A stretch of 64,000 nucleotides of DNA from an uncultured Gammaproteobacteria bacterium (GCA_964648865.1 CAZYLV010000002.1:79272-143271), one strand, 5' to 3'. Counted from the first letter of the stretch, positions 32,635 through 46,421 are shown. The notes: generated from the sequence alone by a model not told the origin. Numbers and translations: made by a program.

Positions 32635-32662
32635 GTAGGGGCGTAATGCATTACGCCCCTAC
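32635..32662. repeat. Perfect 28-bp palindrome GTAGGGGCGTAATGCATTACGCCCCTAC (copy 1 of a recurring motif). It ends 5 nt upstream of the murA -35 element and 12 nt upstream of the divergent PEGA gene start.
   Basis: The reverse complement is identical to the forward sequence. The candidate murA promoter is TTGCAT (32667-32672), a 17-nt spacer, and TACATT (32690-32695). Confidence 0.8.
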
Positions 32663-32704
32663 GGGCTTGCATGATCCCCAAAAACCTGATACATTCACCG
32701 TCTT

Positions 32705-33961
32705 ATGGCGCATTTTTCGATCGTCGGCGGCACCCCGCTCTCCGGGGAGATCCGCGTATCCGGTGCCAAGAACGCGGCGCTCAAGTTCTTGGCGGCGACC
32801 GTGCTTTTGGACGGCCCCGTGACCCTGCGCAACGTCCCGGACATCGAGGACGTGCGGCGCATGGCAGAGCTCCTCAAGGGCCTTGGCGCGGCCGTGGAGG
32901 CCTCGGAGCGCAACCAGTATACCATCGACCCCTCCGGCATCTCGACGGAACGGCTGGACCCAGTCTTGGCGCCCAAGATCCGCGTCTCGACCCTGCTCGT
33001 GGCCGGGCTCCTGGTGCGCCGCGGCTCGGCCACCCTGCCGTTCCCGGGCGGCTGTGCCATCGGCCGCCGGCCGATCGACCTGTTTTTGGAGGGCTACCGC
33101 GCCTTCGGGGCGACGGTCGAGGAAGACGACAAGGAAATCCGCTTCTCGACCAAGAAGCTCACCCCGGCCCGCTTCGTCTTCCCCATCGTCAGCCATACGG
33201 CCACGGAGGCCCTGATGATGCTGGCGGCCCGCGTCCCGGGGGAGAGCGTCCTGGTGAACTGCGCCATGGAGCCCGAAGTGGGCGCGCTGGCCGATTTCCT
33301 CAACTCCTGCGGAGCCAAGGTGAGCGGCGCCGGCACGCCGACCATCCGTATCCAGGGCGTGGCGCGGCTCTCCGGCGGCGAGGCCGACATCATCCCGGAC
33401 CGCATCGAGGCCGGCAGCTTCTTGGCGCTGGCTGCGGCGACGCGTAGCGCCATCACCGTGCGCGGCGTGGATCCGGAGCACATCGAGGTGCCGCTCCAGT
33501 ACCTGCGGCGTATGGGGGTGCCCGTCGAGGTCCGCGGCGCGGACGTCGTCGTCTCGCCCTGGACGGAGCTCAAGGCCGTCAACATCACCACGCACGAGTA
33601 TCCGGGTTTCCCCACGGACATGCAGCCGCCGTTCACGGTGCTGCTCACCCAGGCCACGGGCAGCGCGCTCGTCCATGAGACGCTGTTCGAGAGCCGGCTG
33701 TTCTTCACGGACAAGCTCAACAAGATGGGCGCCGAGATCGTGCTCTGCGACCCGCACCGCGTGCTCGTCCAAGGGCCGACGGCGCTGCGGGGGACGACGC
33801 TGGAATCCCCGGACATCCGGGCCGGTCTGGCGCTCGTCATCGCGGCGCTGGCGGCCGACGGCACGAGCCGGATCGAGAACATCTACCAGATCGACCGCGG
33901 TTACGAGGCCATCGAGGAGCGCCTCCGGGCCCTCGGGGCGGATATTCACAGGGTCGAATAG
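32705..33961 (+). CDS. murA: UDP-N-acetylglucosamine 1-carboxyvinyltransferase
   Basis: The MurA-type N-terminus (GAKNAALK) and full-length collinearity with MurA (~418 aa). Confidence 0.9.
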   Translation: MAHFSIVGGTPLSGEIRVSGAKNAALKFLAATVLLDGPVTLRNVPDIEDVRRMAELLKGLGAAVEASERNQYTIDPSGISTERLDPVLAPKIRVSTLLVAGLLVRRGSATLPFPGGCAIGRRPIDLFLEGYRAFGATVEEDDKEIRFSTKKLTPARFVFPIVSHTATEALMMLAARVPGESVLVNCAMEPEVGALADFLNSCGAKVSGAGTPTIRIQGVARLSGGEADIIPDRIEAGSFLALAAATRSAITVRGVDPEHIEVPLQYLRRMGVPVEVRGADVVVSPWTELKAVNITTHEYPGFPTDMQPPFTVLLTQATGSALVHETLFESRLFFTDKLNKMGAEIVLCDPHRVLVQGPTALRGTTLESPDIRAGLALVIAALAADGTSRIENIYQIDRGYEAIEERLRALGADIHRVE

Positions 33962-33965
33962 CGAA

Positions 33966-34018
33966 TAGGGAATGACGAATAGCGGGACTTGTAGGGGTCC
34001 CGCTATTCTCTATTCGCC
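33966..34018. terminator. Large imperfect inverted repeat or hairpin between convergent genes (CGAATAGCGGGAC-TTGTAGG-GGTCCCGCTATTC core)
   Basis: A 12-bp GC-rich stem flanked by further partially complementary GAATAG repeats. There is no clean U-tract, so terminator function is inferred from position only. Confidence 0.4.
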
Positions 34019-34023
34019 ATTCC

Positions 34024-34401
34024 TCACTCCGTGACGGTCACAGCACCGGTTTTTGCCGGGTTCAGATGGTCGTGGAAGCGCCAGGTGCCGGGCCGGTCGA
34101 AGGTGAAGCGGTAGTGGTCGCCCGGCGGGATGCTCCGAAAGGCGTCGAATCCCGGGTATTCCTGGTGCGTGGGGTGGACCGCGGACGCCGGCCAATGATT
34201 GCGGACGCCGTCGTTGCGGAAGTAGACCGTCGTCCCTGTGGGGACTTCCAGGCTGGGCGGGGTAAAACCGTCGCTGGTCATGGAGATGACCGGCGCGCCC
34301 TCCGGGATGGCTGCGGGCGGCGCGTTTGACGTCGCCGGCGTGCAGCCCGCACCCAGGAGCAGGAGGGCTGCGGAGATGGGGATAACGGCCAGACGACGCA
34401 T
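34024..34401 (-). CDS. Cupredoxin-like lipoprotein
   Basis: Lipobox LLLLGAGC after MRRLAVIPISAA, followed by a beta-rich domain with EVPTGTTVYFRNDG and several His residues. The ORF track extends to 34557, but the lipoprotein start is at 34401. Confidence 0.5.
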   Translation of the reverse strand: MRRLAVIPISAALLLLGAGCTPATSNAPPAAIPEGAPVISMTSDGFTPPSLEVPTGTTVYFRNDGVRNHWPASAVHPTHQEYPGFDAFRSIPPGDHYRFTFDRPGTWRFHDHLNPAKTGAVTVTE

Positions 34402-34477
34402 AGCTTTCTCGACATTAGGGGACCATTGCCCGAAGGCATCATGCGACTTATCATACGGGAGGTTTCCCGAGTCTTCC

Positions 34478-35053
34478 ATGAGCCATCCTCTCGTCATCGA
34501 CATCGAGACCCAGAACACCTTCCAGGAGGTGGGCAAGTACGACCACCGGTTGCTCAAGGTCTCGCTTGTCGGGGCCTACGACTATGCCACCGGGCAGTAC
34601 GAGTCCTATCTCGAGCAGGAACTCCCGGCGCTCTGGAAGAAGATGGAGCAGGCTTCGGCCGTCATCGGCTACAACATCATCGGGTTCGACCTCCCGGTCC
34701 TCAACAACTACTACCCGGGCGACCTCACCAAGCTCCCCACGGTGGACCTGATGTACATGCTCGAGAAGCAGATCGGGTTCCGTCTCAAGCTCGATGACGT
34801 GGCCCACGGCACGCTCGGGGTGGGGAAGAGCGGCACGGGGCTCCTGGCCGTCGAGTACTGGAAGAAGGGGGAGCTCGACAAGCTCCGGGAGTACTGCCTG
34901 CAGGACGTGAAGGTCACCAAGGACCTCTACGACTACGTCCAGTCCTACAACCACCTCAAGTACCGGGATCGGCAGGGGACCGAGGTAATCGTCCCGCTGG
35001 CCGTGCTGGCGCCGGCCGCCCGGCCGCCCGTGAACCTGACCATGCCGTTTTAG
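34478..35053 (+). CDS. DEDD-family 3'-5' exonuclease (DnaQ/RNase T/oligoribonuclease-like)
   Basis: LVIDIETQN (exo motif I, with Asp and Glu) and YNIIGFDLPVL (motif II). Confidence 0.65.
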   Translation: MSHPLVIDIETQNTFQEVGKYDHRLLKVSLVGAYDYATGQYESYLEQELPALWKKMEQASAVIGYNIIGFDLPVLNNYYPGDLTKLPTVDLMYMLEKQIGFRLKLDDVAHGTLGVGKSGTGLLAVEYWKKGELDKLREYCLQDVKVTKDLYDYVQSYNHLKYRDRQGTEVIVPLAVLAPAARPPVNLTMPF

Positions 35054-35082
35054 GGGCTTTTCTCGGGCCGAAGGGTCGCACA

Positions 35083-45127: not shown

Positions 45128-45522
45128 GCGCGGTCCTTCTTGCCGTTCCTGCCGCCGAAGAACTTCTGGATGCGGTCGATGATGCCCTGGAGCGGGATGT
45201 TGACCTTCACCAGGTAGTCGACGATGCCGAACTTGCGGGCGCGCTCGATGTCCGTGTCCTGCGAGAGCACCGAACAGACGATGACCGGCGTCTTGTCGGC
45301 GCTGTCCTGCTTCTCCTTGAGGAACTCGAACCCGTCCATGCGCGGCATGCGCAGGTCCAGGAGGATGAGGTCGTAGCGGTTCTTCTTGAGCATCGCAAGC
45401 GCCTCGATCCCGTCCTTGGCCAGGGTCGTGTCGAACCCGTCGGTCCGCAGCTTCAACGTGAGGATCTTGGAGATCCCCATGTCGTCCTCGACGAGAAGGA
45501 TGCGCTTTTTGCGGCCGGGCAT
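45124..45522 (-). CDS. Stand-alone response-regulator receiver (CheY-like) protein
   Basis: LLVEDD, the phospho-acceptor in LILLDLRMP, and the conserved Lys in DYLVKV. Confidence 0.8.
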
Positions 45523-45560
45523 AGGTCACTGGGAGTATAGCACGCCCAAGCGGAGAAGGC

Positions 45561-45589
45561 TTGGCAGGAAGGCCGACCCATAGTATGCT
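45561..45589 (+). promoter_or_regulatory. Candidate tRNA promoter TTGGCA-17nt-TATGCT
   Basis: Hexamer spacing matches the other promoters in the window. It is ~22 nt upstream of the tRNA 5' end. Confidence 0.4.
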
Positions 45590-45611
45590 CCCGCCAACTC
45601 CGTTGTTGTGT

Positions 45612-45684
45612 CGGGCTATAGCGCAGTTGGTAGCGCGCTTCGTTCGGGACGAAGAGGCCGTGGGTTCGAGTCCCACTAGCCCGA
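45612..45684 (+). tRNA. tRNA-Pro (anticodon CGG), CCA not encoded
   Basis: Folded by hand: acceptor CGGGCTA/TAGCCCG, D-stem GCGC, anticodon stem CTTCG/CGAAG with loop TTCGGGA, T-arm GTGGG-TTCGAGT-CCCAC. Confidence 0.85.
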
Positions 45685-45711
45685 CAGAGCAACGGATTTT
45701 CGCGTCCTCTC

Positions 45712-46401
45712 ATGGAACCGCACGGCATCCGCCACCTCGGCATCATCCTGGACGGCAACCGCACCTGGGCCCGCGGTCGTGGCCTGCCGACGTTGGAGGG
45801 CCACCGCCGCGGCTACGATAGGCTCAAGGAGTTCGGGGACTGGTGCATCGCCCGCGGCATTCCCATGGTCACGGCGTTCGCCTTCTCCACGGAGAATTGG
45901 AACCGTGCGCCGGAGGAGGTCGCGTACCTGATGGAGCTGCTCGAGCGCGCGCTCAGCCGCGAGGTCGACGAGTTCGACAAGCGTGGCGTGCGGCTGCGGG
46001 TCATCGGGCGGCGCGAGGGGCTGCCCACGGCAATCGTCCGGGCCGCCGCGGCCGCCGAGGAGCGCACCAAGAACAACGGCAAGATGACCCTGCAGCTGGC
46101 CATCAACTACGGCGGCCGTCCGGAGATCGTCGATGCCGCCAAGCGCGCCCTGGCGGCGGGCCTCACGCCGGAGACGCTCACCGAGGAGGCCTTCACCCGT
46201 TTCCTGTACGCGCCGGAGACCCCCGATCCCGACCTCATCATCCGTACCGCCGGCCACCGGCGGCTCTCCGGATTCCTGCTCTGGGAGGCCGCCTACAGCG
46301 AGCTGCATTTCACCAAGACGCTCTGGCCGGACTTCTCGGAGGTCGACCTCGACGCCGCTCTGGCCGACTACGCCGGCCGTGTACGCAAGTTCGGGAAGTG
46401 A
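45712..46401 (+). CDS. uppS: Undecaprenyl-diphosphate synthase (cis-isoprenyl transferase)
   Basis: HLGIILDGNRTWA and FAFSTENWNR, the UPP synthase signatures. Confidence 0.9.
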   Translation: MEPHGIRHLGIILDGNRTWARGRGLPTLEGHRRGYDRLKEFGDWCIARGIPMVTAFAFSTENWNRAPEEVAYLMELLERALSREVDEFDKRGVRLRVIGRREGLPTAIVRAAAAAEERTKNNGKMTLQLAINYGGRPEIVDAAKRALAAGLTPETLTEEAFTRFLYAPETPDPDLIIRTAGHRRLSGFLLWEAAYSELHFTKTLWPDFSEVDLDAALADYAGRVRKFGK

Positions 46402-46410
46402 GCTATACTG

Positions 46411-46421
46411 GGCGTGATGCC
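46411..46421. repeat. Half-site GGCGTGATGCC, identical to the left arm of palindrome copies 2 and 3. It is preceded by TATACT, upstream of the antiporter gene.
   Basis: An 11-mer shared with the 38612 and 39215 arms. The right arm does not complete a palindrome here. Confidence 0.4.

Follow-up and report, generated by a model that had tools for sequence, protein, structure and literature searches.

Repetitive extragenic palindromic (REP) elements tagged by the tetranucleotide GTAG are linked to RAYTs, the RayT-type transposases, and the survey of Di Nocera, De Gregorio and Rocco (2013; PMC3733652) counts 24 families of them, with a bias to unidirectional and convergent intergenic regions, TAG stop codons that are donated to genes, and occasional intragenic copies. 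Among these enzymes, TnpA_REP subclass 2.4 of Quentin, Siguier, Chandler and Fichant (2018; PMC6006769), which is equivalent to RAYT group 4 of Bertels et al., carries the motifs NH[IFV]H, WQ and YIxNNP, and is found in abundance among Cyanobacteria and Bacteroidetes while being scattered in other phyla. The REPs of this subclass have a double foot, namely, 5' GT[AG]G and 3' C[TC]AC, and three G-C pairs at the base of the stem, and REPs located in frame inside tnpA_REP, between HuH and Y, were reported to be unique to it (PMC6006769). Here we analyzed a 64,000-nt stretch of DNA (GCA_964648865.1, CAZYLV010000002.1:79272-143271; hereafter, the window), which is deposited under the name of an uncultured Gammaproteobacteria bacterium and whose lineage is Patescibacteria (the candidate phyla radiation, CPR) near Uhrbacteria. 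The first-pass annotation of this stretch had described a recurrent palindrome close to the starts of several genes. We conclude that these palindromes are very probably copies of a GTAG-tagged, double-foot REP of the RayT/TnpA_REP substrate type, and thus represent insertions rather than a regulon. The class has already been described; what is new is a member in a CPR genome.

The palindromes in the window resemble the REPs of subclass 2.4 in having both feet, in their stem base, in the motifs of the related proteins, in the in-frame copies found in transposase linkers, and in their scattered distribution over phyla, but they differ in that the host is a high-GC member of the CPR, that two of the copies (copies 2 and 3 below) have one intact foot, and that no transposase gene was seen in the window. 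With the GTAG super-family (PMC3733652) they share the short GTAG-tagged GC-rich stem-loop, the location, the TAG stops and the copies inside open reading frames (ORFs), whereas that survey found its families in Proteobacteria, Cyanobacteria, Chloroflexi and the Planctomycetes-Verrucomicrobia-Chlamydiae (PVC) group, and did not include the CPR. The E. coli REPs with their bacterial interspersed mosaic elements (BIMEs) and RayT (TnpA_REP, YafM; 4ER8) are similar to the extent that a hairpin is combined with a GTAG guide and with a Y1 HUH enzyme of the same superfamily. However, the E. coli REPs have imperfect, bulged stems with a single foot, are present in hundreds of copies and in BIME arrays, and belong to subclass 2.2, whereas the elements described here are perfect and two-footed.

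The window harbors four copies of the element and one remnant. Copy 1 (32635..32662, no strand assigned) is a double-foot, perfect 28-bp palindrome, GTAGGGGCGTAATGCATTACGCCCCTAC, laid out as GTAG-GGGCGTAATGCATTACGCCC-CTAC, and is found in the 81 nt that separate murA (start 32705) from the divergently oriented PEGA gene (start 32623, minus strand); the minimum free energy (MFE) of its predicted RNA fold is -21.8 kcal/mol (z -4.5). Copy 2 (38608..38631, plus strand) reads GTAG-GGGCGTGATGCGTCACGCCC, with the stem at 38612-38631; it has one central mismatch and lacks the 3' foot, and its GTAG provides the TAG stop codon of an 86-aa ORF (38351-38611), and the ATG of cobO is found 1 nt past its stem. 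Copy 3 (39214..39237, minus strand) reads GGGCGTGATGCATCACGCCC-CTAC, where the stem (39214-39233) is a perfect palindrome and the single foot is on the 3' side, corresponding to GTAG on the minus strand; it begins 2 nt past the cobO stop codon and finishes 7 nt ahead of the ATG of the DUF4430 gene (39245). These three copies had been reported before, and their coordinates, the perfect symmetry of copies 1 and 3 and the single central mismatch in copy 2 are all confirmed, as are the gene names PEGA, MurA, CobA/CobO/BtuR adenosyltransferase, DUF4430 and Na/H exchanger, which are right according to Pfam. However, a fourth copy had been overlooked, namely, GTAGGGGCGTATGGCAATACGCCCCTAC at 17853..17880 (no strand assigned), which can be written as GTAG-GGGCGTATGGCAATACGCCC-CTAC with a 12-bp stem and a 4-nt loop, and which has an MFE of -23.5 kcal/mol (z -5.2). 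It is located in frame within a GT4 glycosyltransferase-methyltransferase gene (17244-19262; 672-aa ORF), where it contributes VGAYGNTPL to the linker that joins the two GT4 halves, and the GC content at third codon positions stays high across the site. Rickettsia palindromic elements, which are about 100-150 bp long, not GTAG-tagged and without a link to RayT, are also small palindromes that lie in frame in coding genes and are tolerated in loops, comparable to copy 4 in the GT4 linker.

The half-site that had been noted near the antiporter gene is real as well. It is flanked by the uppS stop (46401) and the Na/H exchanger gene, and contains the 11-mer GGGCGTGATGC (46410-46420), which is common to copies 2 and 3 and the half-site and was found 4 times against 0.14 expected per window. 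By itself, the half-site folds as CTGGGC-GTGAT-GCCCAG (46408..46424, plus strand; MFE -11.6 kcal/mol). It has neither a GTAG nor a CTAC foot, so that its assignment as a truncated REP remnant is only probable. A full unit consists of GTAG + GGGCG-x-CGCCC + CTAC with a GC-rich stem, the base of which is made of three G-C pairs (GGG...CCC) in 4/4 copies; both feet are present in copies 1 and 4, and GTAG directly adjoins the stem in copies 1, 2 and 4. The stems in the window are 8-14 bp long with nominal loops of 0-4 nt, and the predicted energies of the RNA stems range from -14.7 to -23.5 kcal/mol across the copies. As read directly from the sequence, two of the three frames of the version with an ATGCAT center are closed by stop codons on both strands, and only RGVMHYAPT can be read from it. 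When up to 3 mismatches were allowed, the 20-mer gave 8 strand-hits in the window, compared with 0.07 expected from dinucleotide shuffles.

We compared these sites with the orthologous ones in syntenic relatives, namely, two from Hainich groundwater (L096 and L097), L128 (GCA_004297205.1) and L129 (GCA_041643055.1), whose proteins are 81% (CobO in L096/L097) or 78% (murA in both L128 and L129) identical to those of the window. The PEGA-murA spacer, which is 81 nt long and contains the REP in the window, is 44 nt in L128 and 17 nt in L129, and both are hairpin-free. At the junction between the 86-aa ORF and cobO, the site is empty in L096/L097 (...CAGGAGCCAGCATG), where the stop and start codons overlap, so that the window has 19 extra nt, while L128 has GTAG-GGGCGGACCAATGTGTCCGCCC and L129 has GTAG-GGGCGGGGTTTCCCCGCCC, both with inner stems unlike that of the window. 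CobO of L128 is 93% identical to that of L096, yet this site is filled in the former and empty in the latter. At the cobO-DUF4430 junction, L096/L097 and L128 are empty (TGAtATG), the window being longer by 32 nt; in L129, the flanks (TAGTC...CTACAGC) are those of the window but the inner stem is GCGGAAACCGC instead of GTGATGCATCAC, i.e., the inner stems are entirely different in two genomes whose CobO proteins are about 80% identical. Empty orthologous sites therefore exist for copies 1, 2 and 3. For copy 4, other REP-type peptides occupy this site in GT4 homologs with 63-83% identity, some of which have a second REP-type peptide 50 residues further, while homologs with at most 53% identity have an unrelated linker. 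The GT4 gene of L094, a Patescibacteria relative, has at its first site (10610-10655) the doublet GTAG-GGGCGCG..CGCGCCC + GGGCGGG..CCCGCCC-CTAC, and at its second site (10733-10760) GTAGGGGCGTATTGCGATACGCCCCTAC. In general, the relatives contain 1-3 footed hairpins per 21-22 kb. Since orthologous sites are found filled, empty or swapped, the sites have been gained, lost and overwritten between close relatives, and are not conserved along with the genes. As a separate observation, a relative with about 62% identity (L098 726-810 / L099 2491-2575) has a REPIN-like doublet 3' of cobO, consisting of GGGTAGGGGCGATGCGGTGCATCGCCCC, a spacer and GGGGCGACCCATCGGGTCGCCCCTACCC; the two hairpins are unlike each other and have their outer feet in common.

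The same hairpins are found inside genes for RayT-like proteins elsewhere. In a tblastn search, E. coli RayT matched two Ignavibacteria loci weakly (E = 0.003), exactly at the motif. The ORFs there (L021 and L026) have a Pfam Y1_Tnp domain (PF01797) with the motif in frame inside, and residues 92-122 of E. coli RayT align weakly to their proteins. At another locus (L084), the 28-mer lies 120 nt upstream of a homologous Y1_Tnp gene, which itself contains an expanded copy, and a search with the encoded protein returned 2,775 homologs at E<=1e-10, several of which had been named 'REP element-mobilizing transposase RayT' by JGI, and which include Patescibacteria and Kuenenbacteria entries. An NH[IFV]H-like motif, WQ and YxxxNP occur together in 100 of the best 120 homologs. 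In these proteins, the linker between the HUH and Tyr motifs, directly after the former, is hypervariable and built of peptides that the hairpins encode in frame. For instance, the linker peptides RGVLQYAPT and VGAYCNTPL are two frames of GTAGGGGCGTATTGCAATACGCCCCTAC. The sequence of copy 4 of the window, VGAYGNTP, is present in the linker of 6 of the 120 proteins, and that of copy 1, GVMHYAPT, in one of them. The presence of such hairpins in a RayT-like gene was confirmed at the DNA level in L132; the gene of P0090 has GGGGCGTAATGCATTACGCCCCTAC in frame between two GTAG-GGGCGAATTGAATTCGCCC units, and P0053, the RayT of a Patescibacteria metagenome-assembled genome (MAG; L130), has inside its gene an inverted REP pair that is the same as an intergenic pair 5 kb away.

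Some further features of these loci can be mentioned. The linkers of P0052, P0033, P0059, P0105 and P0124 have grown to 100-200 residues by tandem REP-encoded peptides, and examples of linker repeats are (GRGVLPTD)n, (NEDRAYINTP)n and (GTARRA..GDGDGWG)n; it appears that REP-derived DNA amplifies inside the transposase gene itself. The MAG L130 also has a footed hairpin inside recQ (L130 4682-4705), which, like the GT4 gene of L094, is a housekeeping ORF.

We scanned 185,579 species-representative genomes (596 Gb) for the exact 20-mer, and found 90 loci in 71 assemblies, compared with a chance expectation of about 4 sites per strand under a uniform-composition estimate. These assemblies come from many phyla and have a GC content of 0.33-0.73, including Ignavibacteria (GC 0.33), Bacteroidota, Cyanobacteria, Chloroflexota, Nitrospirota, Omnitrophota, delta- and gammaproteobacteria, Marinimicrobia, Zixibacteria, Lentisphaerae and Gemmatimonadota (GC 0.73), as well as two Patescibacteria, one of them a Ca. 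Uhrbacteria; several MAGs have 3-6 loci apiece. The site is a perfect palindrome at 75 of the 90 loci. An exact 5' GTAG is found at 35 loci, an exact 3' CTAC at 36 and both at 20, where the chance of a match is 1 in 256 per flank. Sibling hairpins with a common foot and other inner stems, such as GTAGGGGCGGTTCGCGAACCGCCCCTAC and GTAGGGGCGGGTTTAAAACCCGCCCCTAC, accompany the 20-mer at these loci. In three of the 90 loci, the 20-mer is found within or next to the gene of a RayT-type Y1 transposase. With respect to the neighboring genes, 34 loci are tandem, 17 convergent, 5 divergent and 30 overlap an ORF, although these classes come from a crude longest-ORF caller and the last one is inflated by ORFs over-extending into the element. 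Several external copies supply a TAG stop or adjoin a stop codon at a distance of 0. This distribution is not of the promoter type, and is in agreement with the distribution of REPs described by Di Nocera et al. (PMC3733652). The only papers that a full-text search of the literature brought up for the 9-mers GTAGGGGCG and CGCCCCTAC dealt with unrelated eukaryotic primers and promoters. In some genomes, two Patescibacteria included, a T-run follows the identical 28-mer (L001 707-740, L030 2062-2095 and L063 5450-5495), and in L063 the 28-mer also has an A-run before it and lies between convergent genes; the 28-mers flanked by a T-run may double as intrinsic terminators.

Taken together, the anatomy of the copies, their spread, the link to RayT and the insertion polymorphism support the possibility raised in the first-pass annotation that the palindrome is a REP-like, genome-wide element. 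The enzyme group of relevance would be subclass 2.4, and RayT belongs to the IS200/IS605 superfamily as a domesticated transposase of the Y1 HUH type. According to the TnpA_REP literature, RayT would bind a single-stranded hairpin together with the GTAG tetranucleotide, cleave it and rejoin the ends, and these reactions are thought to spread copies around the chromosome. The copies in the window might have been moved by a RayT that is encoded elsewhere in the genome, or was formerly present; the insertions would have gone into intergenic spacers of very small length and, in one case, into a protein linker that tolerates them. Their effects on the adjoining genes, i.e., a TAG stop, the separation of genes and a hairpin in the mRNA, would then be by-products. 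The local outcomes can be read directly from the DNA: in each of two gene pairs of the window, a stable hairpin of 20-36 nt separates genes which in the relatives overlap or almost touch, and copy 4 adds nine residues to the GT4 linker.

Several points weigh against this explanation. A single exact foot is present in each of copies 2 and 3, and the four copies and one remnant are the total in the 64-kb window. A tblastn search of the window found no RayT gene, its only matches being spurious ones to the palindrome. No mechanism has been established by which inner stems are replaced at orthologous sites. Moreover, to our knowledge, the biochemical mobilization of REPs by RayT has been demonstrated only for E. 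coli-type enzymes, neither for subclass 2.4 nor in vivo. With regard to the inner stems, we consider it possible, though less likely than not, that the GTAG-GGGCG / CGCCC-CTAC foot may serve as a reusable landing pad, where one REP class overwrites another at a site, by RayT-mediated cleavage and strand exchange or by gene conversion primed from the foot. Such a landing pad would fit the verbatim occurrence of the 28-mer across many phyla, and the identical flanks with swapped stems at the cobO-DUF4430 junction. If this were true, an active, horizontally spreading RayT(2.4)/REP system would have been captured in the CPR, and the sites would provide natural evidence for REP mobilization. In any case, the verbatim reuse of the 28-mer across phyla and the swaps of inner stems are mildly unusual, and leave the classification unchanged.

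Among the other explanations, the one that fares best is that the REPs have been co-opted, with the hairpins retained for a role in mRNA, such as protection from 3' exonucleases, the setting of gene ratios within the operon, or translation initiation and coupling at cobO and the DUF4430 gene. An RNA hairpin had also been among the options of the first-pass annotation. The predicted stems are indeed stable (-14.7 to -23.5 kcal/mol, with z-scores down to -5.2), and, provided that the operon is a single transcript, copies 2 and 3 must be part of it. The stem of copy 2 lies 1 nt before the cobO ATG, and the AGGAG that lies just upstream of this ATG in L096 is shifted about 19 nt further from it. 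Furthermore, REPs have been reported to affect mRNA stability and are plausibly transcribed (PMC3733652), and T-runs follow some copies elsewhere, e.g., in L001, L030 and L063. However, neither the presence nor the sequence of the hairpins is conserved at the orthologous junctions, which argues against a selected role there, and all copies in the window are without a T-tract. A side effect on the mRNA is possible. We consider retention of the hairpins for a role in mRNA rather unlikely; it would be compatible with, and secondary to, the REP explanation.

Far less probable is the explanation that had been put forward first, namely, that a dimeric transcription factor, encoded elsewhere, would use the palindrome as its operator and co-regulate murA and the PEGA, cobO, DUF4430 and antiporter genes. 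A perfect dyad of this length would suit such a factor, the copies lie 1-42 nt from start codons, and copy 1 lies between divergent genes. The closeness to start codons is thus real, but copies 2 and 3 are equally near the upstream stop codons and copy 4 is intragenic; as copies 2 and 3 are as near to stops as to starts, this closeness reflects the tight packing of the genes, not a promoter position. In addition, the site is absent or replaced in L096, L097, L128 and L129: at all three junctions there are syntenic relatives that either have no site or have entirely different inner bases, where recognition would take place. Copies 2 and 3 are inside an operon, and in the relatives the genes concerned overlap or are 1 nt apart, so there is no room for a promoter. 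Beyond these genomes, the neighbors of the same palindrome in 71 assemblies from many phyla are unrelated genes, and positions at 3' ends outnumber those in divergent spacers. A scan of 32300-39500 for promoter and terminator consensus sequences found nothing overlapping any copy located there, in particular no promoter-like site. The first-pass annotation had itself named copies at 3' ends and inside genes as evidence against a specific regulatory site; such copies were found, and that view was not borne out. Finally, although the window has a GC content of about 69% and short inverted repeats are abundant in it (495 pairs), the idea that a GC-rich genome simply yields such palindromes by chance, or as ordinary Rho-independent terminators, can for practical purposes be discarded, since 8 hits were observed against 0.07 expected from shuffles, the copies share their sequence and not structure alone, a T-tract is absent in all of them, the true terminator-like hairpins of the window look different, and copies 2 and 3 are intra-operonic.

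The identification of these palindromes as REPs removes a false lead, as there is no hidden regulon joining the cell-wall, B12-salvage and antiporter genes, and it places RayT-type REPs in Patescibacteria. Since CPR genomes are small and tightly packed, insertions of 20-36 bp part overlapping, translationally coupled genes and donate stop codons there. The filled, empty and swapped orthologous sites offer material for studying the movement and turnover of REPs. For annotation, the hairpins explain odd peptides (VGAY..TPL and RGV..YAPT) and some spurious N-terminal extensions.

The host genes of copies 2 and 3 (38351..39685, plus strand), which provide the context outside the element, are the 86-aa ORF, which is conserved and has no Pfam match, the cobO-type corrinoid adenosyltransferase gene (38633-39211) and the DUF4430 gene (39245-39685). 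Upstream of the 86-aa ORF is nrdJ (35191-38349), which encodes a class II, B12-dependent ribonucleotide reductase with ATP-cone and TSCPD domains; nrdJ, the 86-aa ORF, cobO and the DUF4430 gene form a B12-related string over 35191-39685 and on to about 40230. The order nrdJ-cobO-DUF4430 is also found in L096, L128 and L129, and a DUF6580 gene comes next in L128 and L129. An Rfam scan of the whole window at the gathering score detected two tRNAs only, with neither a cobalamin riboswitch nor a match to the palindrome. Copy 4 resides in a fusion gene, in which a GT4 glycosyltransferase is joined to a class I S-adenosylmethionine (SAM)-dependent methyltransferase, and the fusion is kept in about 10 relatives in Patescibacteria.

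A few other sequences in the window deserve mention. A TTGCAT-N17-TACATT sequence just past copy 1 is not claimed as a promoter; it was not reported by the consensus scan, and it matches the -35 consensus at 3 of 6 positions. The hairpin GGGCGACCACTGCTTCGTCGCCC at 30829-30851 was left out as a fifth copy, having a 7-bp GGGCGAC/GTCGCCC stem without feet and being located inside an ORF (30254-31288); it may be a decayed REP or a chance hairpin. Terminator-like hairpins of another appearance occur at 8003-8023, followed by TTTT, and at 40922-40951. Between the murA stop and the convergent next gene there is an imperfect inverted repeat (33963-34022), with 26-nt arms of 81% complementarity, a core 12-bp perfect stem (GAATAGCGGGAC...GTCCCGCTATTC) and GTAGGGG in its loop, which looks like a bidirectional terminator.

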